A stretch of DNA of 64,000 nt from a virus (IMGVR_UViG_3300032167_000002:216286-280285); one strand, 5' to 3'; shown: positions 24,095-64,000, counted from the stretch's first letter. Translations and numbers: made by a program. The notes: generated from the letters alone by a model not told the origin.

Positions 24095-24232
24095 GTGACC
24101 TCAATTACTATAAAAATTGATGATATTGAGAAACAGTTATTACAAGAATATGCTGAAGATAATGATCTCACCATATCTTAGGTTATTCGCCGTCTAATTA
24201 AAGAGTTATTAGACGAAAAATTTGATAGATAA
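24095..24232 (+). CDS. Small DNA-binding protein, ribbon-helix-helix-like, with one in-frame TAG
   Basis: AGGAGG then GTG start; ...DLTIS-TAG-VIRRLIKELL...; TAA stop. Confidence 0.45.
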
Positions 24233-24429
24233 GGAGCCAATATTAATGCTAAATACGAAGACTAAAATAGTTTATTCATTGCGACTCCATGTTGCGCTAT
24301 AGCAATAGGGATTCGTACATATTACGGAAATGAAAAATCCGCAAAATCCGCACCTAAATTGTTGGGTATACGAGGCTACTCCGCGCTTTACAGCTGCCTT
24401 TGAGGCGCTTATGGGGGAGGTCGGCCGCA

Positions 24430-25014
24430 GTGATTGAGAATTTCAAAGATTTAGAAGTTAGACAAAGTGGTGTTATTTATTAGAGCACTTTTGAATAGAT
24501 AAAGAAATTATATGCTGTTGATCCAGAGAAAGCCGGAGAGTTGGCTATTAGTGCCATTGAAATGGTTTTATGTGGATAGATTAGCAGTGATGATATGATT
24601 GTTGAATTGATGTTAGAACCTACAAAGGTTGTGGCGGGGAAGGATCATGTTAAGTATGATTAGAAAGTGGAAACGCAGAGACAAAAGAAAATTTTGGATC
24701 AAAAATTGGATCAGATTGCGGACTTGCATCTGCGAGGCATGCGCCAGCGTGAAATTGCGGAGAGACTGGGCTTGACGCAGCAAATAGTGAGCTATCGGCT
24801 GGGGGTTATCCGTTCTACTTATCCAGAACTTTTACAAAAAGATTCACAAAATTTACAAACAAATTTACCAAATAATTACAAAAATACAAATGATACAAAA
24901 GTTACAAAAAATACAAAAGTTTGTACTGATGGTGAGTTTGGTAAAATTGGTGAAGTTTGTAAAGTAGATGAAACATCTGCGCTTGTTGACGGCCAAAAAC
25001 CGTGGAATTTCTAA
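24430..25014 (+). CDS. Sigma-factor region-4 or LuxR-type HTH protein with four in-frame TAG codons
   Basis: HTH LHLRGMRQREIAERLGLTQQIVSYRL; GTG or TTG start after GGGGGAGG; TAA stop. Confidence 0.45.
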
Positions 25015-25130
25015 AATTTTTACAAACATTTTACAAATAAAAGTAGATTTTACAAACGATTTTACCAAATGATTACAAAAATACAAATAATACAAAACTT
25101 ACAAATGTATGATAATGTTAATGATAATGA
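24838..25130. repeat. TTACAAA-type direct-repeat tract (about 25 copies) followed by a GATAATG microrepeat
   Basis: Runs of TTTACAAA, ATACAAA and TTACAAAC. Confidence 0.6.
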
Positions 25131-25217
25131 TAATGTAAATGATAATAGGTGCGTTTGGTGCCGTTGGCACCAATCCGCTTGCGCCTACCGGCGATGAAGT
25201 GATAAAGGAGTGCGATT

Positions 25218-25418
25218 ATGAGATATTTTAAAGCGCCTAAGGGCGATGTAAAATTTAAGATAGGTAGTATAGAGGATTTACCATATGATGCTGAAGAGAT
25301 TAAATTATATATGGTAAGTGGAGATCCTGCTATTTATATAGTACCAGTTTCTGAAATACCTTATGACTATACTAAAGTTAAAGAAGAGGGCGAAGAAAAT
25401 TCCCATTTGATTTTTTAA
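25218..25418 (+). CDS. Hypothetical protein (66 aa)
   Basis: AAGGAG Shine-Dalgarno. Confidence 0.45.
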   Translation: MRYFKAPKGDVKFKIGSIEDLPYDAEEIKLYMVSGDPAIYIVPVSEIPYDYTKVKEEGEENSHLIF

Positions 25419-25437
25419 TTATTTTTTGATATAATAA

Positions 25438-25530
25438 TTGTAGGAAAAAATGAAATGAAAAAATGAATTGAAAAAATGATTTTTCATTTGAAAAAATGAA
25501 ATGAAAAACGAAAGGAAAATTGAAATGAAA
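25438..25530. repeat. Tandem GAAAAAATGA(A/T) repeats with a central palindrome GAAAAAATGATTTTTC
   Basis: At least 8 copies, immediately upstream of 25525..25989. Confidence 0.55.
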
Positions 25531-26302: not shown

Positions 26303-26755
26303 TTAGACCAAACTCTTGATGAAATTGGCTAATACTTCATCATCGCTCTTGGAAGCGTGGGTGGCGGGAGTAATGTGGCTCTTGGTCTGGGGCTTCTCTT
26401 CCAAGGCGGCGCGCATCTGAATTGCAAACTGAAGTAGATTGAACATCTGATCGATTGCGGCGATCATTTCGTCCAGGTCTTCATCGGTGTACTCAGACAG
26501 AATGTCACGACTGCCGGGACAAACCAGGTCACCGTATCTCTGCATAAGATGAATAAACTCCTCGGCCAGCTCGCGCTTCTGGGTAGCCAGAGCGTTTGCG
26601 GCCTCGGCCTTCTTGGTGGCCTCAACCTCAGCATCATAGGCACTCTGAGCGGCGTTCAGCACGTCGGCAATAGACTGCCCGATAGTATCCATAGACTCAC
26701 CGTTGCGCAGACGGGCCAGGATATCCTTTTCACTAATCATTGGTATATACCTCAT
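26303..26755 (-). CDS. Hypothetical helical protein (150 aa)
   Basis: ORF with promoter copy and Shine-Dalgarno. Confidence 0.55.
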   Translation of the reverse strand: MRYIPMISEKDILARLRNGESMDTIGQSIADVLNAAQSAYDAEVEATKKAEAANALATQKRELAEEFIHLMQRYGDLVCPGSRDILSEYTDEDLDEMIAAIDQMFNLLQFAIQMRAALEEKPQTKSHITPATHASKSDDEVLANFIKSLV

Positions 26756-26769
26756 TTCTTCTTTATTGT

Positions 26770-26804
26770 ATTATTATTATATCATATTTTTTTTATAAAG
26801 TCAA
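26770..26804 (-). promoter_or_regulatory. AT-rich early promoter copy driving 26303..26755
   Basis: Minus strand reads TTGACTTTATAAAAAAAATATGATATAAT. Confidence 0.55.
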
Positions 26805-26822
26805 TTGCGGTCGGTGCGGCCT

Positions 26823-26850
26823 TGACAAATAAGAATTTTTTTGGTATAAT
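26823..26850 (+). promoter_or_regulatory. Plus-strand consensus promoter TTGACA-N16-TATAAT at the junction region
   Basis: TTGACAAATAAGAATTTTTTTGGTATAAT. Confidence 0.5.
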
Positions 26851-26867
26851 ATTAAAAAAAACTAAAT

Positions 26868-27130
26868 TTCCCGATCGGGTTGATTTTTATAAAAAAATAT
26901 GTTATAATTATAATGGAAGAGAATAATAATAAGCCGATCGGCTTTATACAAATAGATCGGCCATATGCGGATTCCCGATCGGCCCTGCGGGGACTTGGTT
27001 TTCGGGAAAAATTGAGGCCATATAGAGGTCGCTAGAAGTAGCAGAAAATTTGCATATGGGGTGTACCGATCGGAAAATCGGGCCAGTACTGGCGTCCTCG
27101 GCCCGTCGAGTTTCGGGAATCCGAACGGAT
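26868..27130. repeat. Non-coding junction with at least 5 copies of the GC-rich palindromic motif CCGATCGG
   Basis: CCCGATCGGG, GCCGATCGGC, AGATCGGCC, CCCGATCGGCCC and ACCGATCGGAAAATCGGGCC in otherwise AT-rich sequence. Confidence 0.5.
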
Positions 27131-27236
27131 GTTCGCCCCGGCCGCATTTTGTGAAAAAATACTTGAAATCACTTGACAAATCGAAATTCGGGCCGGAAGC
27201 GCTAGTGTACGGCCCGCCAAAAAATGACCCCATGAC

Positions 27237-27408
27237 TCAATAATGAGCCATGGGGTTTGTTACTACATAGGGGTCATCCTCGTTGTAAGGGTCTTCGACG
27301 GGGTCGAAGAAGTCCCAACACTCGTCACCCTCTTCACACAGATTGCAACAGGCCACATCGTCCGTGGTTTCCTGTCCCACATGGGAGCAACGCCAACATC
27401 TACTCATA
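27237..27408 (-). CDS. Small Cys-rich acidic protein (about 56 aa)
   Basis: MSRCWRCSHVGQ...; its start overlaps the upstream gene's TAG stop (ATGAGTAG). Confidence 0.4.
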
Positions 27409-27570
27409 GTCCTCGTCCTCCTCTGCAGGTTCGGCATCCCAGTCATCTTCTTCACAGGGGGCGGGGAAAGGGCTATCGCTGGGGTAGTGGCAGGAAGGGT
27501 GGTCTTCCCCTTCATCTTGCCAGTAGTAGCCACAGTTGCTATCGGCACAGCCGAGATGCTTTTTAGCCAT
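27400..27570 (-). CDS. Small acidic Cys-containing protein (56 aa) that stops with TAG
   Basis: MAKKHLGCADSNCGYYW...EEDEDYE. Confidence 0.4.
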   Translation of the reverse strand: MAKKHLGCADSNCGYYWQDEGEDHPSCHYPSDSPFPAPCEEDDWDAEPAEEDEDYE

Positions 27571-27688
27571 TGTTCTTGTCCTCGCTTTCCTTAGGGTCTG
27601 CGGTCGGCTGTTCTTGCGTTCCGCACTGGTCGCACTTGGTTTCGTCAATGTCGGTTTTCCAGTAGTTAGGGCACTTCAAGCAGTTCAT
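27563..27688 (-). CDS. 41-aa zinc-ribbon peptide
   Basis: MNCLKCPNYW...CDQCG; preceded by a consensus promoter. Confidence 0.4.
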   Translation of the reverse strand: MNCLKCPNYWKTDIDETKCDQCGTQEQPTADPKESEDKNNG

Positions 27689-27712
27689 AATCTGCACCTC
27701 ACTTTCTGAATG

Positions 27713-27742
27713 TATTATAGCATACCTTGGGGGTTTTGTCAA
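27713..27742 (-). promoter_or_regulatory. Consensus sigma70 promoter (TTGACA-N17-TATAAT) embedded in the palindrome GGGGGTT...AACCCCC
   Basis: Minus strand reads GGGGGTTGACAAAACCCCCAAGGTATGCTATAAT. Confidence 0.6.
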
Positions 27743-27760
27743 CCCCCTTTTTCGTTTTTT

Positions 27761-28366
27761 TTAGAAAGGCAGTTCGTGGTTTTGAGCCGCCCATTCGCAC
27801 GCAATCGTGCTGTATTCCTCGCTGATTGCAGGAATGTCGATGAAAGAACGGCTTGCCATGTAGTCCGCCATGTGAACACATCTGTCTACGGAAGTAAAAG
27901 GTCTGTCCTCTCTGTCGGTAGACCACTGCCCCATGTGGCTTGCAACCGCATTTGTCAGCAAGAAATGGGGAGTAAATCCGTACTGTTCCTCGCACCAATG
28001 GGTGAAACTCTCGGCGGCGTTTCGTGCATGGTCTGCGTACTGGGACTTGTCAAAGTCCTTGATGCCGTACTTGTTCGTGTCGTGGATAAGGCAGGCGACA
28101 ATGACATAATCCTTGTACTCTGCTCTCATGTACGCATAGGAACTCATGCGGAGCAACTCTTCTGCAAACATCACAACTGCCTTGGTGTGGCGAATAGTAC
28201 CGCCGATGCCGTGGGCGAACTTCGGATGATACTTGCCGGAACTGGATGCGCCGTCCGTCCAAAAGTAGTCAGGTGTGGCTTCTTCCAGATAAGACTTGGT
28301 AGCCATGCGCAGGTCTTCATTTACGATGAGCGCCAACTCACGCTCGAAAAGTTTAATGTTTCTCAT
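27761..28366 (-). CDS. HD-domain phosphohydrolase
   Basis: Motifs GKYHPKFAHGIGGTIRH and ACLIHDTNKYG (H...HD); AAGGAG Shine-Dalgarno. Confidence 0.6.
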   Translation of the reverse strand: MRNIKLFERELALIVNEDLRMATKSYLEEATPDYFWTDGASSSGKYHPKFAHGIGGTIRHTKAVVMFAEELLRMSSYAYMRAEYKDYVIVACLIHDTNKYGIKDFDKSQYADHARNAAESFTHWCEEQYGFTPHFLLTNAVASHMGQWSTDREDRPFTSVDRCVHMADYMASRSFIDIPAISEEYSTIACEWAAQNHELPF

Positions 28367-28396
28367 GGGTATCAATCTCCTTCATTTGATGAACTT

Positions 28397-28425
28397 ATTA
28401 TAGCATACTTTGTGCCATTTGTCAA
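28397..28425 (-). promoter_or_regulatory. Consensus sigma70 promoter driving the HD hydrolase gene
   Basis: TTGACAAATGGCACAAAGTATGCTATAAT. Confidence 0.65.
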
Positions 28426-28438
28426 GCACTTTTTTTGG

Positions 28439-28532
28439 TGGAGATGGGGGGAATCGAACCCCCTTGCACACCCTCGGCAGGATGAAGGCTTAGACCAAAG
28501 CATCCTCTGACTTTCCTAGCCAGCCCATCCCC
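28439..28532 (-). tRNA. Type-II tRNA-like gene (94 nt) with a 16-nt anticodon loop containing UCUAA; amber-suppressor candidate, speculative
   Basis: Acceptor GGGGATG/CATCTCC with CCA, D-stem CTGG/TCAG, anticodon stem GGATG/CATCC enclosing CTTTGGTCTAAGCCTT, 16-nt variable arm, T-arm GGGGGTTCGATTCCCCC. It has its own promoter (TTGCAT-N16-TATAAT) at 28540-28585. Confidence 0.45.
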
Positions 28533-28704
28533 ATCGGACAATAGTATTATACCATAATTGCGGGACAATGCAAGTGGTAATAGTGCACAAAAATTCGATT
28601 TGAAAAAATGCCTGGGTTGTGCAAAATGCTAAATAACGCCCGCGACATTTGTCTGCGGGCGGCCGAAAATTATGTAAACCGCACAAAAAATTACACAAAA
28701 ACGC

Positions 28705-28732
28705 GAAAAACCGCCCATTTTAGGCGGTTTTT
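28705..28732. terminator. Bidirectional rho-independent terminator
   Basis: AAAAACCGCC-CATTTTA-GGCGGTTTTT. Confidence 0.6.
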
Positions 28733-28733
28733 C

Positions 28734-29102
28734 TCAACTTTTCGGCTTGCGTTTAGCGATTAGCGTCAATTCGTAGGCATCTTCACCAATTTTGAAGGCG
28801 ATTTGCCGTGTTTTGTTGGTGATTTCGACGGAATTGTAGCCATTTTCGGTCAAAAACTCCGCAATTTTAGCAATTACACCCTCTTTTGTGGGGTTTTCTG
28901 GTGCTTTTCGTGCGGTTTTGCCCTCTTTGGCGGTGCGTGTGCCTGCGTTGGCGTTCTTCATAGCCTGCTTGTGTTGCTCGTCGGTCAAGTCAAAATCGAC
29001 CTTTTCCCCTCGGTCTATCTTCTTGTCCTCGGCAAGTACGGCTTCGGCTTCCTCTCGGCTACAACGCAGATTTTTCATAATGCGGTCAACTTGCGTTTCC
29101 AT
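28734..29102 (-). CDS. Cassette gene A (122 aa), hypothetical; paralog of 32558..32911
   Basis: Shared N-terminus ...SREEA..L.EDK.IDRGEK. Confidence 0.55.
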   Translation of the reverse strand: METQVDRIMKNLRCSREEAEAVLAEDKKIDRGEKVDFDLTDEQHKQAMKNANAGTRTAKEGKTARKAPENPTKEGVIAKIAEFLTENGYNSVEITNKTRQIAFKIGEDAYELTLIAKRKPKS

Positions 29103-29200
29103 AGTGGTTGCCCCCTTTCATTACATAGTACAGCACACTTGGGGCAGGTTGTCAAGAGGGAGTTTTGAGGGGGCGATTGCCCCCTCGACCCTCGGCAGGG

Positions 29201-29575
29201 TTAGACAAGGGAGAAGTATGCCTTTCTCTTGTCCTCGGTACGCTTGACCTTGCCAGCCTCGACCAACTGGCGGAGCAGGGCGGACACCCTCTGATTGGTC
29301 AGGTCAGCACACGCAGGGATGGACTTGATGACCTCGGTAACGGTGTACAGACGGTTGGGTTCCATACCCTCGACGATGGCGGTGGCGATACCTGCGTTCT
29401 GCACCTGCTGTGCGGTGGGCTTCTTGTCAGCGGAGTTCTTCTTGGTCAGCAACTCGACCTCGTGGTCGATAAACTCGACCAGCATTGCGTTCTCCGCAAC
29501 GGCAGGGATGGCACGGAGCATAGCAAACTTCTGTGCCTTGGTCAGCTTGGGGGTAGAGGTAGTGTTAGTAGCCAT
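29201..29575 (-). CDS. Cassette gene B (124 aa), winged-helix DNA-binding protein; paralog of 33021..33404
   Basis: TNTTSTPKLTK...YTVTEVIKSIP..LTNQRVSALLRQLVEAGKV.RTEDKRKAYF. Confidence 0.6.
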   Translation of the reverse strand: MATNTTSTPKLTKAQKFAMLRAIPAVAENAMLVEFIDHEVELLTKKNSADKKPTAQQVQNAGIATAIVEGMEPNRLYTVTEVIKSIPACADLTNQRVSALLRQLVEAGKVKRTEDKRKAYFSLV

Positions 29576-29639
29576 AGTATCGACTTCCTTTCGGTTTTTA
29601 CGACTTGAACCTGTCGGTAATATTCACAAGAGGTTTCCC

Positions 29640-29900
29640 TCTTTGTGTTCTTATTATAGCACATTCAGTGCGGTTTGTCAAGAGGTTTTTTGAAGTTTTT
29701 TCAACTTTTTTTCAACCGCTTGGCTTGGGGTGTTCCCCTCATTGCTCTTACATTGTATCACATCTTGGGGCATTTGTCAAGAGGTTTTTCAACTTTTTTT
29801 TCGCTCGGCTCGCTCTGTCCTGCGTTGTTGCTCACCCTCATTGCTCCTTAATTGTACCACATCGCACCGCAAATTGCAAGTAGTAATTTGCACAAATAAC
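29640..29900 (-). promoter_or_regulatory. Tandem array of three sigma70-type promoters with A-tract UP-like elements upstream of cassette B
   Basis: Three TTGACA or TTGCAA -N17- TATAAT or TACAAT units, each 5'-flanked by GAAAAAAAGTTGAAAAAACC, with a CCTCTTGACA ... TGTCAAGAGG inverted pair. Confidence 0.6.
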
Positions 29901-29938
29901 GGGATTTTACAGAATGATTATTTGTGCAAAATTTCCTC

Positions 29939-29967
29939 TTGACAAATTGCTGGGGGTCTGTTATAAT
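29939..29967 (+). promoter_or_regulatory. Conserved plus-strand (antisense) promoter CTTGACAAATTGCTGGGGGTCTGTTATAAT, copy 1 of 3
   Basis: Perfect -35 and -10 with 17-bp spacer; convergent with minus gene 30040..30252. Confidence 0.55.
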
Positions 29968-30036
29968 GGAATTTCTGCCCGCGCACATACGTCCGCGGGC
30001 CGCCAAATCTTAATGGGAAAAGCGAGGGTTTCCCCT
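29960..30036 (-). terminator. Pair of GC-rich hairpin terminators after gene 30040..30252
   Basis: GCGAGGGG-AAA-CCCTCGC then TTTTCCC; GCCCGCGGACGTATGTGCGCGGGC. Confidence 0.5.
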
Positions 30037-30039
30037 CGC

Positions 30040-30252
30040 TCAAAATGTGTCGTATCCCATTGCTTCCGTTTGTGCGTCGGTGTACTCACCGAGATAGTCG
30101 TACCAGTCGGGAACATCGGAACACCCCATCACCAAGCCGGAATGTTCGCAAGCGATTTCTTCCCAAATGATTTCGTAAGCCTCTTCTACACTGTTGCACT
30201 GTACAAAGAAGAAACCACCATCGATGGTATCTTCAAATAAGAAATTCATCAT
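30040..30252 (-). CDS. Hypothetical acidic protein (about 70 aa); track ORF start trimmed
   Basis: The upstream residues in the ORF track are promoter-derived; AAAGGAAGTG then ATGATGAAT. Confidence 0.45.
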   Translation of the reverse strand: MMNFLFEDTIDGGFFFVQCNSVEEAYEIIWEEIACEHSGLVMGCSDVPDWYDYLGEYTDAQTEAMGYDTF

Positions 30253-30313
30253 TTCATTCACTTCCTTTCTGTGGTTATTATAGCACAGATTATTGAGTTT
30301 GTCAAGACCCTTT

Positions 30314-30786
30314 TTACAGGGTCTTGCTTTCACTCACAAAGTACTTGGCTTCGTACTGATTGATAATGTCACGGACTTTCGCACTCTCGGCTTGGGTCGC
30401 ACAGTAGAAGTTGAATAAGGTGTAGTTGCCGACACCCTCAATGTAGTTGTGGGGAATGTCTTTCAAATCGAAATGCACCGCACCTTGGTACTTGGCAGGA
30501 ACGGTTGCTTCCACTTTCCACAGTTTATCCTTTCGTGCCTTTTCCTCAATCAGTTTTACCACATAGACACCGACAAGGTTACACAAGGCAACAATACCTG
30601 CTTTGAGATAAAGGTCAAGTTCACACATCAAATAGACAGTGACGATAGTATACAGACCGTAGGCAACTGCATTGACAACTGCGGCGGTTGCCTTTCCGCA
30701 CTTGACAGTGGCGATAGATTTTACAGTTTGAATGATGACATTGGCGATGTTCAGTACAACGAACACTAAGAGCAGTTTTGTATTCA
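30314..30786 (-). CDS. Membrane protein (about 157 aa)
   Basis: Start MNTKLLLVFVV; several transmembrane helices. Confidence 0.5.
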
Positions 30787-30978
30787 TTCTATTTACCTCA
30801 CTTTCTGTTAGTATTATACCACAAATACGGGAAATGTCAAGTGTCAATTTACACAAAAGATTTACCCAAAAAATTGTTGAAACTGGTTATTTTGCCGAAA
30901 AACCGGCCCGCGCGTACGTGAAGGGCCGGCCAAAAAATGTCCCCCACCCGCGAACACGGATGGGGGTTGTGGGGGATG

Positions 30979-31404
30979 TTACTCCCCCTTGCCAATGCGG
31001 AACTCACCCTCGGGAACACTCGGCTCATCAATCACAATCAACACAGGGTCGTGAGCGATTGCGGTTCTCGGTTTGGCAATTCGCACAAGGAACAGCTTGT
31101 TGCAAAATGCTCTTGCCTTTTGGTCGTAGCAGATGTAGAGGTTGCCAATCTTGAAATACTTCTCAATCTTGACCCTATCCCAAGCCTCTTGGGTTACTGG
31201 CTTGACTGCGTTGCGGATGAACTTCCAAATCAGCATAAACGGATACCAGATGATGATGAAGATACCCGTCAGCACCACCCACGGCAGAGAGATGGCATAG
31301 TCCAAAATGTTCCACAGAGTGTTGTTGCAGGTTTCCTCTTTCCAAGTGTAGAGGGCACCCATTACCATCCAAGTAATGAGTACAGAGAGCAGGATTTCTA
31401 ACAT
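30979..31404 (-). CDS. Membrane protein (141 aa)
   Basis: N-terminal transmembrane helices. Confidence 0.5.
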   Translation of the reverse strand: MLEILLSVLITWMVMGALYTWKEETCNNTLWNILDYAISLPWVVLTGIFIIIWYPFMLIWKFIRNAVKPVTQEAWDRVKIEKYFKIGNLYICYDQKARAFCNKLFLVRIAKPRTAIAHDPVLIVIDEPSVPEGEFRIGKGE

Positions 31405-31461
31405 AGTATCATTTCCTTTCGTCTTTTGGTACTTTGATTATAGCACACTTTGGGGGATTTG

Positions 31462-31905
31462 TCAAGCGTTTTCTGCGAGAAAACGCTTGAACTTTTCCAC
31501 ATTGAAACGGAAGATGTTACGCTCGCAGGCGTGTTCCACAGGCTCTTCGTGGTAAGGCAGAGTGTAGATAGAACCCCATCTGTCTACAAAGTCCGGGCGG
31601 TCAAACAGAGTGGCGATGGCTCTGCGGTCAAACAGACCCATTTCCTCTTCGTTGTACTTGCGACCCTTGGAGTCAACCCACACACTCTCTTCCTTGGTGT
31701 AGGTGGCAGGCTCGGTGCGAGCTACAACGATGAAGCCATACTCGCGGCAGGTCTGCAGGCTCAGCGGATGTTCCTTGCAACTCTTACGCAGTTCGTCAAA
31801 CTGCTTCTTGGTGAACTCGGCAGGCAGGCTCTGCAGAAACTGCTCGGTTACCTTTGCCAGTGCGAACATGGTGGGGACAGTGTGAGAAAAAGTGTTACGA
31901 TACAT
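31462..31905 (-). CDS. Hypothetical protein (147 aa) with a conserved 5' leader
   Basis: ORF; its leader is shared with the exonuclease gene. Confidence 0.5.
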   Translation of the reverse strand: MYRNTFSHTVPTMFALAKVTEQFLQSLPAEFTKKQFDELRKSCKEHPLSLQTCREYGFIVVARTEPATYTKEESVWVDSKGRKYNEEEMGLFDRRAIATLFDRPDFVDRWGSIYTLPYHEEPVEHACERNIFRFNVEKFKRFLAENA

Positions 31906-32005
31906 AGTAGTTACCTCATTTCATTTTTGTATTGGGGGTTTGCCATCGCTCCCCCAACCGTGATTACATTATAGCATACTTTGTGGGGTTTGTCAACCCC
32001 TTTTT

Positions 32006-32221
32006 TTAGATTTTGAAAACTATTTTTTCAAAAGCAGGTTTGTAGGTTTCGTTCCACAGCTGTTCATACTTGGCACAGTTGTTGGGGTCGTAGGCACAAG
32101 CCATCAGTAACATACCAAAAGCTTGGTCGAAGTAGGTGCGGGCGGTGGGGAAGTGGTTCTCACCGAACTTTTTGCAGTTATGCAGGTGCAGGTCGAGTTG
32201 GTTGATTAAGCAGTTCATCAT
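32006..32221 (-). CDS. Hypothetical protein (71 aa)
   Basis: ORF with upstream promoter. Confidence 0.45.
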   Translation of the reverse strand: MMNCLINQLDLHLHNCKKFGENHFPTARTYFDQAFGMLLMACAYDPNNCAKYEQLWNETYKPAFEKIVFKI

Positions 32222-32398
32222 AGGTCATTACCTCCTTGGTTTGTATCTAAATTATAGCACACCTTTCGGGATTTGTCAAGGGGTTTTGTAAAACTTTTTT
32301 TCTGAATAAAAATTTGTGTGGGATGTATAATAATGCAAATTCCGGGCGCCACGCACGTCAGCGCCCGGCCAAATTTTTCGTCAAAATGCACAAAACCG

Positions 32399-32436
32399 CT
32401 CCCCAGTGCCGTGGTCAAACACTGGGGAGTTTTTTC
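32399..32436 (+). terminator. Rho-independent terminator on the plus strand
   Basis: CTCCCCAGTG...CACTGGGGAG then T6. Confidence 0.55.
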
Positions 32437-32557
32437 GGAGTTTGATTCGGTTGGCTAGGCTCTACGACCACAGTAAAACCCCCTTGCCGCAGTTGGGCAG
32501 TCTTCTTTCTGCCCCGCTGGGATGGGGGTCGATAGGCTCGACCCCACTCAGAGAGCC

Positions 32558-32911
32558 TTAGGAACGGGGGCACGCAAGGGTGACCTTGTACTTCGTGCCG
32601 TTGTGGGTGAATAGGAACTCTCGCTCGGGGTTGGTGATGTTGAAATCAGCCACACCCAGTTCCGCAAGTCCTGCCATCATAGCGGAGCAGATTTCAGCCT
32701 TTTCGGGTTTCGGCTTTCGCTCTCTCTTGGTGGGAGTGTCGGACTTCTTGCGGTCGGCTTGTCTTGCCTTTTTCGCACCCTTTTCCAGTTCGGGGTCAAG
32801 TTCGTACAACTTTTCGCCCCTGTCGATTCGCTTATCTTCTTCGATGAGGTCGATTGCCTCTTCTCGGCTGATGTTCAGCGACTTCATCAGCTTTTGGATT
32901 TTCTCTTCCAT
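32558..32911 (-). CDS. Cassette gene A' (117 aa)
   Basis: Paralog of 28734..29102. Confidence 0.55.
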   Translation of the reverse strand: MEEKIQKLMKSLNISREEAIDLIEEDKRIDRGEKLYELDPELEKGAKKARQADRKKSDTPTKRERKPKPEKAEICSAMMAGLAELGVADFNITNPEREFLFTHNGTKYKVTLACPRS

Positions 32912-33020
32912 CGGGGTTCACTTCCTTTCTGTACTTACAGTATAGCACAGTTTACCCCGATTGTCAAGCACTTTTTTCGGGGTGGGTGGGGGAGATTTCT
33001 CTCCCCCTTGGGCGGTCGGC

Positions 33021-33404
33021 TTAGCCTACCTTGGTAAAGTAGGCTTTCCGCTTGTCCTCGGTACGCACCACCGCACCGCTCTCCACCATCTGACGCATCA
33101 GAGCGGAAACACGCTGGTTGGTGAGGTCGGCACACTCGGGAACGGACTTGATGATCTCGGTGACGGTGTACGCCTTACCGCTCTCCATGCCGTTCAGAAT
33201 GGCGGTCTTGATGCCCTCGTTGGCAGTCTGCTGAGCGGTGGGCTTCTTCTCAGCGGAGTTCTTCTTGTTGAGCAGTTCCACCTCATGGGCGATGAACTCG
33301 CTCAGCATGGGATTGGACTTGACCTCGGGCAGTTCGGCGATGATAGCGAACTTCTGAGTCTTGGTCAGCTTGGGGGTAGAGGTAGTGTTAGCCATAGTTA
33401 TCAA
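33021..33404 (-). CDS. Cassette gene B' (127 aa), winged-helix protein
   Basis: Paralog of 29201..29575; conserved leader GACAGGTTCAAGTC...AAACCGAAAGGAA. Confidence 0.6.
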   Translation of the reverse strand: MITMANTTSTPKLTKTQKFAIIAELPEVKSNPMLSEFIAHEVELLNKKNSAEKKPTAQQTANEGIKTAILNGMESGKAYTVTEIIKSVPECADLTNQRVSALMRQMVESGAVVRTEDKRKAYFTKVG

Positions 33405-33439
33405 TTCCTTTCGGTTTTAGGGACTTGAACCTGTCCTTG

Positions 33440-50764: not shown

Positions 50765-50772
50765 GGAGGACA

Positions 50773-54303: not shown

Positions 54304-54330
54304 TTTAGATATAATATAATATATACTTTT

Positions 54331-54370
54331 AGGGGAGGCGGGGACATCCCCACCTCCCCTTATTTTTATT
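54331..54370 (+). terminator. Strong rho-independent terminator
   Basis: AGGGGAGGCGGGG-ACAT-CCCCACCTCCCCT then a T-run. Confidence 0.7.
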
Positions 54371-54391
54371 TGAGAAAAAGGAGATAATAAT

Positions 54392-54991
54392 ATGAGCAAG
54401 AATACTTGTTTAGTAAAGAATAGAGGCGCAGGTCATGTGTCTTATAAGATTCCAGAAGATGGAGTTCGTCGTTCCTTCGCTCCTGGTGAGACTAAGGAAA
54501 TTAGCTACGCTGAGCTTGAGAAGCTGACCTTCCAGCCCGGTGGTATGGTTATTTTGACTAACTATTTGCAAATTATGGAGCAGGATGCTCTGAAGTCTTT
54601 CGGCATTCATGCTGAGCCTGAATATCATATGAGTGAGCGCGATGTTGCTAACTTGATTAAGACTGGTTCTTTGGATGCTTTCTTGGATGCTTTGGATTTC
54701 GCTCCCACTGCTGTAATTGATCTTATTAAGAAACTGAGTGTTGATATTCCTCTGGTCGATATGAATAAGCGCAAGGCTTTGAAGGAAAAGACTGGTTTTG
54801 ATGTTGACGCCGCTCTTCGTCACATTGAGGAAGAGAAGGAAGATAACCAGACTACTATCTTGAAGCAGACTGGCGAGCGCCGCGTAAAGGCGGAAGCTGC
54901 ACCTGCGGGCCGCAGAACTAATCCAGAGTATACCGCACCTGCCGCTCCTAAGTATAACGTTATCAAGAAGGCTGAAGAGGCCACTGAATAA
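54392..54991 (+). CDS. Hypothetical structural-module protein (199 aa)
   Basis: ORF. Confidence 0.45.
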   Translation: MSKNTCLVKNRGAGHVSYKIPEDGVRRSFAPGETKEISYAELEKLTFQPGGMVILTNYLQIMEQDALKSFGIHAEPEYHMSERDVANLIKTGSLDAFLDALDFAPTAVIDLIKKLSVDIPLVDMNKRKALKEKTGFDVDAALRHIEEEKEDNQTTILKQTGERRVKAEAAPAGRRTNPEYTAPAAPKYNVIKKAEEATE

Positions 54992-56948: not shown

Positions 56949-57542
56949 TTGAAGATTGAAACTTATAGTTATCCAAAATCTAGTTTTTTATCAGCTGAAA
57001 AAGATATGAATATTATCGTTCAAATGATTATGAAAAATGAACGTTTGAAAAAAATGCTTCATTATACAACTAGAGATTGTTTAAGTAAGCCAAATTTAAC
57101 AGAGGATGAAACTTTGGATTTATTTGGTAAGAATATTAAAATTGTCCCAAAACTTTATGTTGATGGTTCAGTATTAAATTATATTATTGTTAGTTTTGAT
57201 AATTTTACTACTAATACTACGAATCCAGAATTTAGGGATAATATTGTTGAATTTGATATTATATGTCATTTTGATCAATGGCATATGAGAGATTTTGAAT
57301 TGCGTCCATATAAAATTGCTGCTGAATTGGATTCTATGTTTAATGAAAAAAGATTGACAGGAATTGGTAAGTTAGAATTTTTAGGAGCAAATCAAATGAT
57401 TTTAACTGATGAATATGCTGGTTTATGTGTTATGTATCAAGCAATTCATGGAGATGAAGATAAACAAAAAATGCCTAATCCTAATACTGAAGCCGATATG
57501 GTTGCAAACTTTGATGCGATGTTTAATCCACAGAGAGCTTAA
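56949..57542 (+). CDS. Hypothetical protein (197 aa)
   Basis: ORF. Confidence 0.45.
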   Translation: MKIETYSYPKSSFLSAEKDMNIIVQMIMKNERLKKMLHYTTRDCLSKPNLTEDETLDLFGKNIKIVPKLYVDGSVLNYIIVSFDNFTTNTTNPEFRDNIVEFDIICHFDQWHMRDFELRPYKIAAELDSMFNEKRLTGIGKLEFLGANQMILTDEYAGLCVMYQAIHGDEDKQKMPNPNTEADMVANFDAMFNPQRA

Positions 57543-58267
57543 TGGATACTCGATTAAGTTTAATGTGTGGTACTGATTATCCAGTTCCGCAATGTTAGAT
57601 TATCATTCATTAGCCTCGCATTAAAGAAATTGCTTTTATCGGCGAATAGGATTTTTTTACAGGTGTTTAGTGTTTGTGTTTAAATAAATCAATGTTCGTT
57701 AAGGACGAAAGTGATTTATCAAATGTGAATAACTTTTAGATATTTATGACGATAATGTCAGAAAAAGAAGCAATAGATAAAAAAATTGCTGTATAGCAAG
57801 TTTGTACTTTATTTTTCCCAAAGTATAAAGTTGTATTCACTCCACGCTCTGTGCTTATTAGTGGAGAGGGATAGACCATGTAGATTGATGAAAGTAATTT
57901 TGAATATTTACAAACAGCAATTTCAAATATCTGTTGTATGAAAACTGGCCCTATGGATTAGACAGCTTTTAATCCCGCAAACTCAAAGGCAAGAGAAATC
58001 GCGGAAAAACTTATGCGTGGGCGCGCAAAAGTAGCTGCTGAAAAGGGGCAATCTAATACTAGTATATTTAGCCAATATCTTTCAATACTAACAGTGGGAT
58101 TGGGTTCAATGTCACTTTAGGATGCGATGGATTTAACCATGTTCCAATTATATGATCTAGTTGAAAGATATATGCTATATATTAATTGGGATATGGACGT
58201 TCGGTGCCGTTTGGCTGGCGGAAAACCAGATAGCTAGCCTGACAACTGGATGAAAAATATTCACTAA
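57542..58267 (+). CDS. Hypothetical late protein with eleven in-frame TAG
   Basis: Every internal stop is TAG; TAA terminates. Confidence 0.4.
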
Positions 58268-58293: not shown

Positions 58294-59289
58294 ATGAAAT
58301 TTGGTGTTCGCGAAATTTGTGATGTTGTTTTGAAGGCAAAGGCCGCACAGAAGATTGGTAACAAAATCTTCTATAAAAATGAGCCTGTTATTTACTTCGA
58401 CACTTTGAAGACCTCTAGCATGGAAGGCGCAGCTACCACTGTTTATGCACAGGGCGGTCGTGGTAACTCTCGTCTAGTTGCTTGGGAAGGTGAGCGTACT
58501 ATCACCTTCACTATGGAAGATGCTTTGATTTCTCCCGCTGGCTTTATGATTCTGTCTGGCGCAGGCTTGATTGAGGCTTCTGAGGCAACTCCTATTAAGG
58601 TTCATACTACTGAGCAGACTGACAATGTTGCTGTTGATCCTGATAGCGGTGTTGTTACCATTACTCTGAAAGAAGCTGCTTACAATGTAGCTGACGATGC
58701 TGAGGATTATGTTTATGTTATGCTGATGGAGAACGGCGAAGTTGTTTCTGAGCCTTTCATTCCCAGTGCTGTTGAGGGCAAGGTTTTAACTCTGTCTCCC
58801 GCTTGGGAAGATGAGGGTCGTACCGGCAATATCAAGCCTCGTGGCAATGATTTGTCTGGTTTCTACAACCATTGTGTTGTAATGGTTGATTACTATGTTG
58901 AGCGCAAGGGTAAGGCTCAGGAGATTACTATTACTCCCGATAAGTTCGGTGGTAACTACTACCTAGAGGCTTCTACTCTGTTCCGCACTCAGGATGGTGT
59001 CGATATGCCTGCAGAGTTTGTAATTCCTAACTGCAAGATTCAGTCTAACTTCACTTTCACTATGGCTTCTTCTGGCGATCCTTCCACCTTCACTTTCACT
59101 ATGGACGCATTCCCTGACTATACTCGTTTCGACAGAACTAAGAAAGTCTTGGCTGCTATCCAGATTATCGAAGGCGGTAATGAAGCTGAAGACATCATGC
59201 GTGTAAGCACTCATTCTTTGGACTATGCTGACGCAAATGGTATGATTACTGGCGCTCGTCCTTTCGCAGGATTTAACGCTGTTGAGTAA
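58294..59289 (+). CDS. Abundant structural protein candidate (major tail or capsid-associated, 331 aa)
   Basis: GC3-rich biased codons; strong terminator downstream. Confidence 0.4.
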   Translation: MKFGVREICDVVLKAKAAQKIGNKIFYKNEPVIYFDTLKTSSMEGAATTVYAQGGRGNSRLVAWEGERTITFTMEDALISPAGFMILSGAGLIEASEATPIKVHTTEQTDNVAVDPDSGVVTITLKEAAYNVADDAEDYVYVMLMENGEVVSEPFIPSAVEGKVLTLSPAWEDEGRTGNIKPRGNDLSGFYNHCVVMVDYYVERKGKAQEITITPDKFGGNYYLEASTLFRTQDGVDMPAEFVIPNCKIQSNFTFTMASSGDPSTFTFTMDAFPDYTRFDRTKKVLAAIQIIEGGNEAEDIMRVSTHSLDYADANGMITGARPFAGFNAVE

Positions 59290-59369: not shown

Positions 59370-60563
59370 ATGTTAGAAAGTTGGCAAAGTTTATTAAATA
59401 CTCCTATTGATACGTCTGGCTATGATTAGGCCATGCTTCATTATAAAAATTTAAAAGAAAAAATGTTAGATTAGATTACTAATTCAGCAAAAGTTAAATT
59501 AAAAAATGAAGAATATAAAAAATTTATTAATGATATAGATATGTTAATTTTACAAAACGCAAGTGGATGGGGAGAAGGCTATGAAAATGCTCAACGCACA
59601 TTAAATAATATTGAAGCAGCAGTAGTAAATTTAATTGAAAGTGGTTCAACTGCAGGAGCTAAAGAATTGTTGGAATCAATTCATAAACAAGTTTATGATA
59701 AAAAAGATAAAATTAAAAATGCCCAACAAACTTTTAAATAGAAATTAAATTTAAATAAAGATTTAATTTTTGCTGAATTAGGTATTAATAATCAATTTAT
59801 TGAAAATATGCTTAGTGTTCAAGGAACTTCTGGAGATACTGCTGATATTGTTGCACAAGCATCTTCATATTTTATTCGTTATTTATATAGTAAATTATTT
59901 AATGAGAAATCATTTGCTGAAGGCTCTCGTTTTAAATATGCGATGTCTTTAGGTGGTTATTATAAAGAGTTGCATGAGTATGAAGCTTTAGAAAAAGTAT
60001 TAAATAATTTTTTAAATGTTTATCATACTGGTGGTACAAAAATGAGCGGACGCGATACTGAAATGGATATTTTTATTTCAACATTAGATAACTTAGAAAA
60101 TGGATTAACGCAAAATGTAAAAGTTACTTAGATGATATCTTCTCTTTAGGAACCACCAGGGATTGAGGATATATTATTATCTTTGTCTCAATAGATTGAT
60201 AGTTTTGGTGAGTAGGTAAAATCTAAAAGTCTAGGGAAAAGTGATACATTTGAAATTGGTAATAGAGCAGATTTGTATTCTGCATTTTTAAGCGAAGGTG
60301 GAAATGAATATAGTTCTTTATAGGCTTTACATTTCTTAGCACGTTTTAAAAATATTTTATTAAGTTTAGGTGTATCTAATGTTTTATTTAGTTCTAATAA
60401 TAAAAGACAATGGATGGTTGATTTTATTGAAGATTTTAGAAGATAGTCATATTTACTGTCTTTTGTAAGACCAACAAATAAAGATAAATTAACTTCTAAA
60501 GTCGGATTAGAACAGTTATATACTTCATCCAGAAATTCTATTAGAAGTAGATTTTCAAATTAA
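59370..60563 (+). CDS. Hypothetical late protein with about nine in-frame TAG
   Basis: Merges track ORFs 59541..59741 and 59808..60131 (same frame). Confidence 0.4.
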
Positions 60564-60566
60564 AAT

Positions 60567-60595
60567 TTGACAACTAAGAAATTTTTTGGTATAAT
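60567..60595 (+). promoter_or_regulatory. Consensus promoter TTGACA-N17-TATAAT (plus)
   Basis: TTGACAACTAAGAAATTTTTTGGTATAAT, then AAGGAGG and ATG at 60630. Confidence 0.55.
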
Positions 60596-60629
60596 AATAT
60601 AAAAAGTGAGATAAAGGAGGAGTTTGACT

Positions 60630-61154
60630 ATGGCAAAAATTCCATTTTCCAAACTTGGTGTAAAAGTAAATTCTGAAATTGCTTTATTAACATGGGGGGA
60701 ATATAATATTGAAATTCGTAAATATTTACCCATGGAAGAAAAGGCAAATTTGATTACAAATGTTTTAAATGCTTCTGCAGATGATAATAAATTTTATAAT
60801 CCTTTGCGAGTAAAAGTATTTTTAACCTTGGAAGCTTTGTACGCATATACTAATTTAAGTTTTACTGAAAAAGCTAAAGAGAATTATTTAAAACTTTATG
60901 ATTCTGTTGTAAGTTCCGGTTTATTTGAACAGGTAATTAGTAATATTCCCAAGAGTGAATGGGATGATTTAGTATCTGCAATGTGGGAAACTATTTCTAA
61001 AGTTTATGAATATAATAATTCTGTATTGGGATTATTAGACAATATTTCTAATGATTATAGTAGCTTATCTTTGGAGGCTGCAGAAATTCAAAAAAAGTTA
61101 GCTGAAGGCAATGGTGTAGAATTTTTATAGGATGTAATGAGTAAGCTGGGCTAA
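60630..61154 (+). CDS. Hypothetical tail-module protein with one TAG
   Basis: MAKIPFSKLG... Confidence 0.45.
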
Positions 61155-61202
61155 TTAAGTTATTTTTATAGGAAAACTTTTCAAATTATCATAGGAATAG
61201 TC

Positions 61203-61242
61203 GAGGGATGAGATAAGTGATTATTCTCATCCCTCTTTTTTA
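61203..61242 (+). terminator. Rho-independent terminator
   Basis: GAGGGATGAGA...TCTCATCCCTC then T6. Confidence 0.65.
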
Positions 61243-61283
61243 TTTTATAAAATAAAAATGGAGAGAAAGGAGATAGCTTTTAT

Positions 61284-64000
61284 ATGGCAAAGAATTTAAA
61301 TGTTAGTTTATCTTTTTCTGCTGATTCATCAAAAGTTAGAGCTGAACTAAATAGTTTAAAAAAGTCTTTGAATGAATTATCTAACAGTATTGCTTTAAAG
61401 ATTCCGCATTTTGAATTTACTAAAGACCTTCAAGAAGCGAGTCGTGCAGCAGCTCAATTAAAAGTTCAATTAGATGCTGCAGTTAATACAAAAACTGGAA
61501 ACTTGGACTTGACTAAGTTCAGCGAGTCAATGAAAAAAAGTGGTATGTCTTTAGAGAAATACCAAAATCAATTATACTAGCTTGGACCTGCCGGTGAAAA
61601 AGCTTTTGCGGACTTAGCAAAGGCTATTACTATGGCGGATGTACCTTTGAGACGCAGTAGTAAATTATTAGATGAATTATGGACTACTATGAAAAATACT
61701 GCTAGATGGCAGCTAACTTCTAGCGCAATGCATGGATTCATGGGTGCAGTATCAAGCGCTTATGGGTATGCAAAAGATTTAAATGCATCTTTAAATGATA
61801 TCAGAATTGTTACTGGCGCAAGTACTGAAAAGATGGCTGAGTTTGCGAAAGAGGCAAATAATGCCGCAAAAGCGCTAAGTACAACTACAACAGATTATAC
61901 TAAAGCTTCTTTGATTTTCTATCAATAGGGTTTAAGTGATGAATAGGTTAAAGAGCGTACTGATGTTACTATAAAAATGGCTAATGCTGCGGGCGCAAGT
62001 GCCCAAGAAGTTTCTGATTAGTTAACCGCTGTTTGGAATAACTTTTATGATGGTACTAAATCTTTAGAGTATTATGCTGATGTCATGACTGCTCTCGGTG
62101 CGGCAACTGCTTCTAGTACTGATGAGATTGCTGGCGGATTAGAGAAATTTGCAGCCATCGGTAAAACAATTGGTTTAAGTTATGAATATGCTGCATCAGC
62201 CTTGGCAACAATTACTTCAAATACTCGCTAGAGTGAAGAAGTTGTTGGTACTGCCTTAAAGACTATTTTTGCTCGTATTCAAGGTTTGAATTTAGGTGAA
62301 ACTCTTGATGATGGAGTTACTTTAAATAAATATTCTCAAGCACTTGAAAAAGTTGGAATTAGTATATTTGATAGTACTGGAGAATTGAAGAATATGGATA
62401 ATATTCTTGATGAAATGGCTGCAAAATGGGATGTCTTAAATAACTCTTAGCAAGTAGCATTGGCACAGACTGTTGCTGGTGTTCGTCAATATAACCAATT
62501 AATTGCCCTAATGAATAACTGGGATAGTGGTGACAGTGATAGTATGGTCGCAAACTTAACTACTGCGACTAATTCTACAGGAACCTTACAGAATCAAGCA
62601 GATATTTATGCTGAATCTTGGGAGGCTGCAAACAAGAGAGTAAAGGCTTCTACTGAAGCAGTTTATTCTGCTATTTTAAATGATGAGTTCTTTATTGATT
62701 TAACTAATAGTTTTGCTGATCTTATAGATGGAGTTAAAACTTTTATTGATAGTTTAGGTGGTATTAAAGGTGTTTTATTAGCTATTGGTAGTATTGTAAC
62801 AAGTGTTTTTTCTAAGCAAATTAGTTAGAGTATTCAAAATGCTGCTTTTAGTATTAAAGGATTTTTAAATCCAAAGGCTATTTTGGAGGCAGAAGTTAAA
62901 TAGAAGGAAAAGGCCAATAAATTATTAGTTAGTGGTTTAAAGGATTAGGGAACTACTTCTAGTGGTTATAGCGCAGAAGCTTATAAAGCTTTAGGTGAAA
63001 ATCAATTAACTTATATTCAAAATATTGAAAGAATGAGTGAAGAAGAGTAGGCTATTAATTAGATTTTAATGGATAGAAATCGAGCCTTAGTAGATAATGC
63101 GATTAAAGCTGGCGAAGAATTAGAAATAATTGAAGAAAAAATTGCTGCTGAAAGAAATATCCTTGTATTTTAGGCTCAAAAAGCTGGAAAAGGATCTTCA
63201 GATCAAATCGCTCAAGTTCGAACATTGTCTAAACAGTATGAAGACTTATCAAAAAATGCTTCTAAATTCCAAGCAGTAGCAAATACTGCTTTTAAATCTA
63301 TCGGCATGAATGAATAGGCTGAAGATGCTAAAGAATTAAAAAAGGAATTGTCAGAGACTGTTCAAGAAATGTTAAAACTAAAAAATGTTAATAAATTAAC
63401 AGATGCTCAAGGTATTGAAAAATTAAAAACTTCATTAAAAACGTTATTGCCGGAAGTTAATCTTACAACAACAGAAGTTAATGAATTATGGCAAACTATT
63501 AAAAATAGTGAAAATGTTTCTTTTGAATAGATTACTGCTGTATTTAATAGATTATCAACTGCAAGTACAGCTGCTGGAACAAGTATCCAATCAAAATTAA
63601 AAGTTGCGATGGAAGCTTGTGGTATGACAAGTGAAGAAGTAGAAAATGCTATTCGAGAGTATAATGCAGTTTTAGAATAGTTTGAAAATAAAAACGAAGG
63701 TGCTGAAGTTGCATTAAGAAAAGTAATTGTGGCGATGAAAGAGCATAATAAAAGCATGGAAGAGGCAAAATAGAAACCTATTCCAATGGCTGAAGCTTTT
63801 TCTAAAGCTGCCGGGGCAGCTATGGCATTGGGACAAGCCATTACTACTATTACTGGTATTATTGATGTATTTAATAATGAAGAAGCCACTACTAAAGATA
63901 AAATTATGGCTTTAATATCTGGTATTGGAATGCTAACTGTTACTATAACATCTATTGTACCAGCATTTAGCACTGCAGAAGTTGCTGTGACTGCATTTGG
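61284..64000 (+). CDS. Tail tape measure protein (5' part, continues beyond the window) with many in-frame TAG
   Basis: Tape-measure core ALGAATASSTDEIAGGLEKFAAIGKTIGLSYEYAASALATITSNTR-TAG-SEEVVGTALKTIFARIQ; coiled-coil rich; four track ORFs lie in one frame. Confidence 0.65.

Follow-up and report, generated by a model that had tools for sequence, protein, structure and literature searches.

Comparative evidence that TAG specifies glutamine in a subset of the genes of an SPbeta-like gut phage

The 64,000-nucleotide stretch of viral DNA analysed here (IMGVR_UViG_3300032167_000002:216286-280285; hereafter the window, to which all coordinates refer) carries one set of genes with TAG codons in their reading frames and a larger set without them, which raises the question of whether TAG is read as a sense codon in part of this genome, which amino acid it would then specify, what would decode it and whether the division between the two sets serves the timing of gene expression. 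The window represents approximately one third of the genome, with a total size of approximately 185 kb, of an uncultivated siphovirus-type gut phage. The explanation that best accommodates the findings described below, and which is very probably correct, is that of an SPbeta-like phage employing genetic code 15, in which TAG specifies glutamine in 17 genes and is decoded by a phage suppressor tRNA.

Across the window 68 in-frame TAG codons are distributed over these 17 genes, and neither TAA nor TGA occurs in frame. The 18 plus-strand genes from position 44701 onward, hereafter referred to as the late genes, comprise 6272 codons with 60 in-frame TAG codons, no TAA, no TGA and no frameshift, and in the off-frames of the same genes TAG is the rarest of the three stops. 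Every late gene is preceded by an AAGGAGG-type ribosome-binding site, and the stop codon is TAA in 16 cases and TGA in one (55576-55884). When TAG was scored as sense, the coding density of the plus strand between 44.5 and 64 kb rose from 0.775 (genetic code 11) to 0.968, whereas the two early blocks, at 0.92 (0.918) and 0.905 under code 11, gained nothing. Homology also extends in single stretches across the TAG positions of the portal (phrog_2739) and TerL (phrog_2) genes, of the YomV-like gene (phrog_4051, covering residues 1-240 and 11 TAG codons), of the first late gene (phrog_5767, E 3.5e-52, residues 78-391 of the longer 44563 model, over all three TAG codons) and of a small ribbon-helix-helix (RHH) regulator gene, where Pfam RHH_1, RHH_9 and DUF6290 match residues 2-44.

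The early genes present the opposite picture. Approximately 74 open reading frames (ORFs) of at least 45 aa contain no in-frame TAG in 9637 codons, although they hold 297 CAA or CAG codons, and they terminate with TAA in 43 cases, with TGA in 28 and with TAG in at most three. The TAG stop of 36750-36989 is real, as the aligned position in a relative (L023) is TAA/TGA, and that of 27400-27570 is plausible; both genes were called by a code-11 pipeline only. A further TAG-terminated candidate, 28516-28698, was rejected as a false ORF that overlies a structured tRNA-like RNA. Read-through of early TAG stops would consequently affect one to three genes, extending each by approximately 22-23 codons.

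These data substantiate the proposal of the initial annotation, made from the window sequence, that a defined subset of genes reads TAG as sense and that the remainder fits the standard code: no stop codon other than TAG breaks the frames, homology is continuous across it, and its listing of recoded genes outside the late region (the RHH gene with one TAG, the gene at 24430-25014 with four, and three minus-strand genes at 42576-43673 with one each, across which the L023 homologues run) was confirmed, as were the preference of late genes for TAA over TGA stops, the absence of internal TAG from early genes and its TAG counts for TerL (4), gene 57542-58267 (11) and the tape measure (given as more than 15; 16 are present up to the window edge). 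Its assertion that every plus-strand gene from 44701 onward is recoded holds for 12 of the 18 and fails for six (50773-52320, 52347-53174, 53194-54303, 54392-54991, 56949-57542 and 58294-59289), its figure of approximately 90 early genes was too high, and its "several" early TAG stops overstated the at most three that are present.

Many metagenome contigs are 100% identical to the window sequence, among them a 110,489-bp JGI contig and a 181,006-bp ENA contig (ERZ27248446 k141_1906683), and variants of the phage with approximately 96% identity extend to 184,701 bp. ENA ERZ27248314 k141_834179 and JGI Ga0216339_10004264 continue to the left of the window, and the source samples are rumen or faecal enrichment metagenomes. 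On a 100% identical contig one ENA gene-calling pipeline yields a full-length TerL of 579 aa and a tape measure of 3122 aa, and code-11 gene calls (e.g. those of JGI) break the same virion genes into fragments. A search with TerL retrieved more than 7000 homologues, the best 120 of which are 87-94% identical and many of which lie on contigs of 175-213 kb, and the clade is both large and common in animal gut metagenomes.

In order to deduce the amino acid, which the initial annotation had left open, 15 late genes were aligned codon by codon with those of four recoded relatives (TerL 87-89% identical). Opposite the TAG codons of the window the relatives carry TAG in 46 instances, CAA in 38, CAG in 5, GAA in 9 and AAA in 6, and opposite TAG codons of the relatives the window carries CAA in 88, CAG in 22 and GAA in 19. 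When sites with TAG on both sides are set aside, glutamine stands opposite TAG at 56% (n=82) and 51% (n=51) of the positions in two independent relatives, close to its self-conservation in these alignments (60% and 68%). The likelihood of each residue, computed from the observed substitution table of the alignments, was highest for glutamine in both: its log-likelihoods were -161 and -104 and those of the next residue -264 and -179, a lead of 103 and 75 units. Glu and Lys are the next commonest residues opposite TAG. Finally, among distant TerL genes without TAG, glutamine is the most frequent residue at two of the four TerL TAG sites (positions 78 and 359). The codon alignments, the likelihoods and the TAG-free TerL comparison together indicate that TAG is read as glutamine, i.e. 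that genetic code 15 applies, in the recoded genes of the window.

Concerning the decoder, the window begins within a large tRNA array that continues to its left and that, on contigs identical to the window, comprises 33 tRNAs including Gln(UUG), Gln(CUG) and Tyr(GUA). The corresponding arrays of relatives were reached via two array-embedded proteins, and their order onward is Tyr, Thr(UGU), Ser(UGA), tRNA(CUA), Leu(UAA), Lys, Lys, Met, Cys. All nine relative loci have a CUA-anticodon tRNA flanked by tRNA-Ser(UGA) and tRNA-Leu(UAA), and three sequence variants of it occur. Its structure is canonical (52.6 bits on RF00005), with a normal GG-containing D loop and a TTCGA T loop, and its acceptor end (U1, G2-C71, G3-C70, G73) resembles that of the phage's own tRNA-Gln genes and that of Sup2 of phAss-1; the 97-nt variant also keeps U1-A72 intact. 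A pattern search for the suppressor sequence in IMG/VR and GTDB genomes returned no occurrence. As the array of the phage is syntenic with that of its nearest relative up to 540 bp past tRNA-Tyr, its own CUA tRNA is expected approximately 1.7 kb beyond window position -7839.

The predicted promoters of the window, recognised and assigned to classes by sequence pattern, provide some information as to when the two sets of genes may be expressed. Class A is a perfect TTGACA-N17-TGnTATAAT, with 29 sites in the whole window, of which 23 lie on the minus strand from 27.7 to 44.6 kb, nearly one for each small gene. Class B, a 29-mer with scarcely any variation (TTGATTTTTATAAAAAAATATGATATAAT), has 16 copies, 13 on the minus strand (2331-23984) and three on the plus strand (20538, 25407 and 26880), and such sites are also found inside the tRNA array; its conserved spacer suggests that it may be recognised by more than the host sigma factor. 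The virion block possesses only two class A promoters, one before the YomO-like gene and one before the gene at 44701, where 17 nt separate the promoter end from the ribosome-binding site (44690-44694) and 28 nt separate it from the ATG. The capsid gene (approximately 54.33 kb), the tube gene (59309-59340, strong and bidirectional) and the YomO-like gene are each followed by a hairpin terminator. The short intergenic spacers of the late genes hold only strong ribosome-binding sites and these three terminators, and no phage-specific late promoter motif was identified in them.

The recoded set consists of most packaging, tail and minor virion genes, two small regulators and the distal half of one minus-strand operon. 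The decoder would most likely be a phage-encoded CUA amber-suppressor tRNA with a tRNA-Gln-type acceptor end, charged by the glutamine pathway of the host and encoded in the same large array that begins in the window. The approximately 74 genes with host-type promoters, which avoid TAG even as a stop, are readable in the standard code and could therefore be expressed in a naive cell, and full-length products of the TAG-bearing genes would be made only after the suppressor had accumulated and competed with release factor 1. Gene content and promoter types suggest that the recoded genes are expressed late, and any delay caused by recoding would act at translation, through the time needed for the suppressor to accumulate and to compete with release factor 1, in agreement with the model of Borges et al. 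(bioRxiv 10.1101/2021.08.26.457843). The relatives carry the suppressor; the phage's own copy of it, the timing and any regulatory purpose of the recoding are inferred.

Several observations weigh against this interpretation. The search of the neighbourhood that the initial annotation had proposed succeeded in the arrays of all nine relatives and failed in the phage itself, as no CUA-anticodon tRNA was detected between window positions -7839 and 69289 (77 kb of this exact phage; ARAGORN, Rfam and a CUA-loop scan with a 5-bp stem), so that its own suppressor gene is deduced by synteny with relatives that are approximately 75-83% identical in DNA in that region. In five relatives a U1·C72 or U1·U72 mismatch replaces U1-A72 in the suppressor, and charging with glutamine is consequently deduced from the codon comparison and not from tRNA identity rules. 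Moreover, the recoded virion block begins with a perfect host-type promoter, and in two relatives the suppressor likewise has a class A promoter 231 nt upstream. The recoded genes are thus not obviously separate from host-type transcription, and the code switch may be early, or merely quantitative.

The distribution of glutamine codons among the late genes bears on this point. In five of the six TAG-free late genes (the YonD-like gene, 52347-53174, the capsid gene, 54392-54991 and the tube gene) glutamine is encoded by 48 CAG and 6 CAA codons, and in the sixth, the YomW-like gene, by 5 CAA and 1 CAG; the TAG-bearing late genes contain 21 CAG, 120 CAA and 60 TAG codons (Fisher p = 2e-22). In two relatives the capsid gene and its neighbours likewise hold 0-1 TAG and prefer CAG, even at a G+C content at third codon positions (GC3) of 0.27. 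The genes of what are presumably the most abundant virion proteins (capsid, scaffold-like and tube) are thus kept free of the recoded codon and use CAG. Most simply, this would mean that suppression falls short of normal decoding in efficiency, and it leaves room for the TAG load of a gene to influence the amount of its product.

The most substantial competing explanation, to which we concede a real though clearly smaller chance, accepts the recoding as genuine and denies it any timing or gating role: in an AT-rich phage equipped with a suppressor tRNA, CAG and CAA would have drifted to TAG under low expression, and TAG would have been purged from highly expressed genes. Such drift is compatible with the poor conservation of TAG (only 46 of the 136 comparisons at window TAG codons have TAG in the relative also), with the variation in TAG number per gene among relatives (TerL 0-12, YomW 0-4), with the lack of any 5' bias of TAG positions within genes, and with the low GC3 of TAG-bearing genes (0.16-0.33) as compared to the TAG-free head genes (0.41-0.55). 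It accounts less well for the absence of TAG from the approximately 74 genes with class A or B promoters and its presence in 12 of the 18 virion genes, a split between early and virion genes that constitutes a module-level pattern and not a purely expression-level one; nor does it readily explain why regulator genes are recoded, or why a capsid gene of a relative (L029) keeps CAG (11 CAG, 3 CAA, 0 TAG) at a GC3 of only 0.27.

A more elaborate proposal, which we regard as speculative and rather unlikely, is that the suppressor tRNA acts as a dosage or timing valve in operons transcribed by host RNA polymerase from SigA-type promoters. The virion block would then be transcribed from the promoter at 44644, with the recoded "sigma factor" gene (phrog_5767) next. 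Without suppression, ribosomes would halt at TAG in the first five genes, and downstream expression, the TAG-free capsid genes included, would remain low through lost translational coupling or transcriptional polarity; with suppression, the TAG load, from zero in the capsid and tube genes up to 4.6% of the codons of the YomV-like gene, would help to set the ratios of virion proteins. A tRNA mimic (Y-RNA-like and permuted) that lies beside the suppressor in relatives could share the same control.

That TAG is already a sense codon in the host, so that the phage mirrors its host and nothing changes upon infection, is very improbable. It would fit the near absence of TAG as a stop across the window, and clade contigs have been binned into metagenome-assembled genomes (MAGs) of many unrelated taxa; yet the early genes lack sense TAG throughout, one early gene (36750-36989) has TAG as its stop where a relative has TAA/TGA, the relatives possess a suppressor tRNA of their own, and hosts of code-15 phages use the standard code in published cases (Borges et al., bioRxiv 10.1101/2021.08.26.457843).

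It is less probable still that TAG encodes another residue such as pyrrolysine, Tyr, Glu or Lys. ARAGORN labels the CUA tRNA "Pyl", a label that derives from the anticodon alone, and Glu and Lys follow glutamine opposite TAG; the lead of glutamine, however, exceeds 75 log-likelihood units in each of the two independent relatives, and the CUA tRNA has a canonical cloverleaf and a Gln-like acceptor end, whereas tRNA-Pyl is atypical in its D-loop and T-loop features and in its fit to the general tRNA model. That a decaying prophage has left these genes as pseudogenes, or that assembly errors interrupt them, as their fragmentation under code 11 might be taken to mean, has a practically negligible probability in view of their uninterrupted frames and strong ribosome-binding sites, the 100% identical sequence of independent contigs from many samples and the thousands of intact relatives.

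Reassignment of TAG to glutamine in late genes by phage suppressor tRNAs is known from crAss-like phages (PMC7886860), where proteomic proof exists (PMC9523058), and from the eight clades surveyed by Borges et al. (bioRxiv 10.1101/2021.08.26.457843); the present case is therefore real and not new in kind, and what is added here is the amino acid, the place of the suppressor in relatives and a corrected list of recoded genes. The closest described relative is the group of phAss-1 (proposed Phassvirus; Babkin et al. 2023, PMC10607447; OQ749652; "Caudoviricetes code 15 clade" in the NCBI taxonomy), gut phages of siphovirus type that read TAG as Gln in 28% of their ORFs, including TerL, portal and tape measure, and that carry 28-36 tRNAs, among them 2-3 tRNA-Sup-CTA genes assigned to Gln, with no dedicated aminoacyl-tRNA synthetase reported (PMC10607447). 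The tape measures are of similar length (approximately 3150 aa there and 3122 aa here), the TerL homologue shows 45.8% identity to P0117 (a close relative's TerL), and UGGGG...CCCCCG and the GGUCUCUAAAACC anticodon arm are common to the 72-nt Sup-CTA of phAss-1 and the suppressor of the clade described here. In contrast, the phAss-1 genomes measure 133-138 kb as against at least 181 kb here, and their suppressor tRNAs adjoin anaerobic ribonucleotide reductase genes instead of occupying the Ser-Sup-Leu site of a long array. A megablast search of 44 kb of the window against GenBank phages gave no match, which together with the genome size places the phage outside the Phassvirus genus, where nucleotide identity to phAss-1 of approximately 80% or more and common synteny would be required; a TerL identity of only approximately 46% indicates that the separation is at the rank of genus or above.

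The code-15 clades of Borges et al. (crAss-like, Lak, Jade, Sapphire and others) resemble this phage in the concentration of in-frame TAG in structural genes, in the standard-code compatibility of the remaining genes, in their phage-encoded suppressor tRNAs and in having close lineages with codes 11, 15 and 4, as the TerL lineage here is also mixed; Jade and Sapphire, with genomes of approximately 200 kb, are compared with this phage by size and mixed codes only. The code change module of those phages (tRNA, aminoacyl-tRNA synthetase and release factor), in contrast, was not seen in the stretch covered here. Borges et al. also report a bias towards lysis genes, which in this phage are located outside the window. 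The mixture is apparent in TerL genes approximately 48% identical to that of the window (L053 8679-10421 and L059 10001-11743, on GTDB MAG contigs), which have 6-7 in-frame TGA codons and no TAG; with the unrecoded TerL genes of L042, L045, L047 and L051 these point to a single lineage with TAG-recoded, TGA-recoded and unrecoded members. The crAss-like phages (Peters et al. 2022, PMC9523058; Yutin et al. 2021, PMC7886860) share the reassignment, the late genes and a phage suppressor tRNA, but constitute an unrelated podovirus-like order with Bacteroidota hosts, whereas the window carries an SPbeta-like module and Firmicutes-like signals. Bacillus phage SPbeta and its relatives have the same virion gene families and order (YonB, YonD_N, YonG_N, YomU_Tube, YomV_2nd, YomW, YomO), and TerL homologues of Enterococcus, Geobacillus and Bacillus phages are 33-47% identical; the cultured relatives listed differ in using the standard code and in lacking a comparable tRNA array. 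With this phage the code-15 group gains an SPbeta-like, Firmicutes-type lineage of jumbo size, and its exempt abundant virion proteins (CAG only), recoded regulators and host-type consensus promoters before recoded genes could make a regulatory role testable.

The features of the window are collected in Table 1. The virion module has the order YonG_N, TerL, portal, YonD_N, YonB (capsid), YomW, YomV, YomU (tube) and YomO, followed by the tape measure of 3122 aa; the family assignments come from Pfam matches precomputed for relatives and for contigs L008 and L009, which are identical to the window.

Table 1. Genes, promoter and tRNA array of the window, with their TAG content
Feature	Coordinates	Strand	Details
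tRNA array (part)	1..6321	-	17 complete tRNAs and a truncated tRNA-Phe at the window edge (ARAGORN, Rfam); continues left of the window
TAG-free block, 32 ORFs	5663..23831	-	Stops 23 TAA, 9 TGA, 0 TAG; class B promoters; coding density 0.918
RHH (CopG/Arc-type) regulator	24095..24232	+	1 TAG (24179); AGGAGG ribosome-binding site
Helix-turn-helix (HTH) DNA-binding protein gene	24430..25014	+	4 TAG (24481, 24496, 24577, 24661)
TAG-free block, approximately 40 small genes	26303..42213	-	Nearly each with its own class A promoter; holds the TAG-terminated 36750-36989
Three recoded genes	42576..43673	-	43365-43673, 43148-43378 (AbrB/MazE-like), 42576-43151 (DUF7352)
Perfect sigma-70/SigA-type promoter (TTGACA-17-TGgTATAAT)	44644..44672	+	Precedes the first recoded gene of the virion block
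phrog_5767 ("sigma factor") gene	44701..45753	+	3 TAG; C-terminal zinc-ribbon/HNH-like motif
YonG-like, TerL, HNH homing-endonuclease-like and portal genes	45797..50764	+	4, 4, 2 and 2 TAG
Four TAG-free head genes	50773..54991	+	YonD_N-like, 52347-53174, YonB-type major capsid, 54392-54991; Gln almost all CAG
Three recoded virion genes	55014-55589, 55576-55884, 55868-56920	+	4, 2 and 2 TAG
YomW-like virion gene	56949..57542	+	TAG-free here; 2-4 TAG in relatives
YomV-like gene	57542..58267	+	11 TAG in 241 codons; TAG is 65% of Gln-type codons
YomU-type tail tube	58294..59289	+	TAG-free; CAG only
Recoded gene	59370..60563	+	9 TAG
YomO-like gene	60624..61154	+	1 TAG; own perfect class A promoter (60567-60595)
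Tape measure, first 905 codons of 3122 aa	61284..64000	+	16 TAG; PhageMin_Tail on the full-length call (identical contig L009)

Regarding the regulators, the initial annotation had described the gene at 24430-25014 as sigma-like, an assignment that we could not support as only weak HTH hits were obtained (phrog_3855 at 2.5e-06; DUF6291 under its threshold). As a sigma candidate 44701-45753 is preferable; this gene is recoded as well, and Pfam and PDB sequence searches gave no match for it. The three recoded minus-strand genes form the distal half of a six-gene operon from the class A promoter 44562-44534, and opposite their single TAG codons (43580, 43348 and 42803) the relative L023 has Y, Q and A, respectively. 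Just upstream of the RHH gene (24020-24055, plus strand) lie three GGTAAGACA-like direct repeats (GGTAAGACAG, CGTAGGACAG and GGTAAGACAA), which are a likely operator for RHH autoregulation. The HNH/homing-endonuclease-like gene that separates TerL from the portal gene (48745-49101, plus strand) is itself recoded.

The ribosome-binding sites and promoters of the phage look Firmicutes-like. Contigs of the clade in GTDB (L041-L060; some of 154-176 kb) are deposited in MAGs labelled Acutalibacteraceae, Mollicutes, Treponema, Bacteroidales, Lachnospiraceae and others, which points to phage contigs mis-binned as bacterial genome sequence, and since these taxa are inconsistent no host was deduced from the MAG bins of the clade.

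The tRNA array contains a number of unusual elements. Three of them, all on the minus strand, were considered as suppressors and rejected as none has a CUA anticodon: 4196-4269 (47.7 bits) has an abnormal anticodon loop of 8 nt (UGUAGGAG) or 6 nt, is assigned a two-base anticodon by ARAGORN and is kept in all array variants and relatives; 4115-4182 is a degenerate tRNA-like sequence (31 bits, just over the Rfam cut-off) with an oversized anticodon loop; and 2376-2434 is likewise degenerate, with a CUUCAAA loop (anticodon UCA, which would read UGA) and no acceptor stem. A drum RNA (RF02958; L002 17060-17170, 78 bits against a gathering threshold of 43) is situated within the array approximately 1.0-1.1 kb left of the window start, with tRNA-Thr on one side and tRNA-Val on the other. 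Genes for PDDEXK_5 and GIY-YIG nucleases are dispersed in the array of this phage and of its relatives.

A circularly permuted tRNA-like element is present at 5366-5532 (minus strand) and also at L030 12544-12667, with the order T arm, acceptor 3' strand, NCCA, a linker of 5-55 nt, acceptor 5' strand and D arm; its Rfam hits to YrlA (Y-RNA-like) are weak, at 29-39 bits against a gathering threshold of 69. All nine relatives (including L031-L034 and L061-L064) have a copy of it 25-45 nt upstream of the suppressor tRNA, and the acceptor stem of that copy, AGGGGAG/CTCCCCT-G-CCA, is nearly that of the suppressor. In L030 and L061 a gene for a DUF2828/DUF7788 protein lies a few kb from the permuted element.

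Two further loci are located within or beside the early blocks. The class A promoter at 26822 and the class B promoter at 26880 point right into approximately 350 nt without a convincing ORF on either strand, and 26822-27256 (plus strand), ending at the hairpin 27227-27256, may represent an unannotated RNA. At 28436-28532 (minus strand), a 97-nt RNA resembling tRNA and transfer-messenger RNA (tmRNA) has its own TTGCAT-17-TATAAT promoter, an acceptor stem (GGGGAUG/CAUCUCC) whose G3:U70 is the identity pair of alanine, a T arm and an encoded CCA. It scores 38.9 bits (E 1.5e-12) against the Rfam tmRNA model, whose gathering threshold is 47, is much shorter than a normal tmRNA, with no tag reading frame evident, and is identical in its 3' part to the corresponding RNA of the relative L023.

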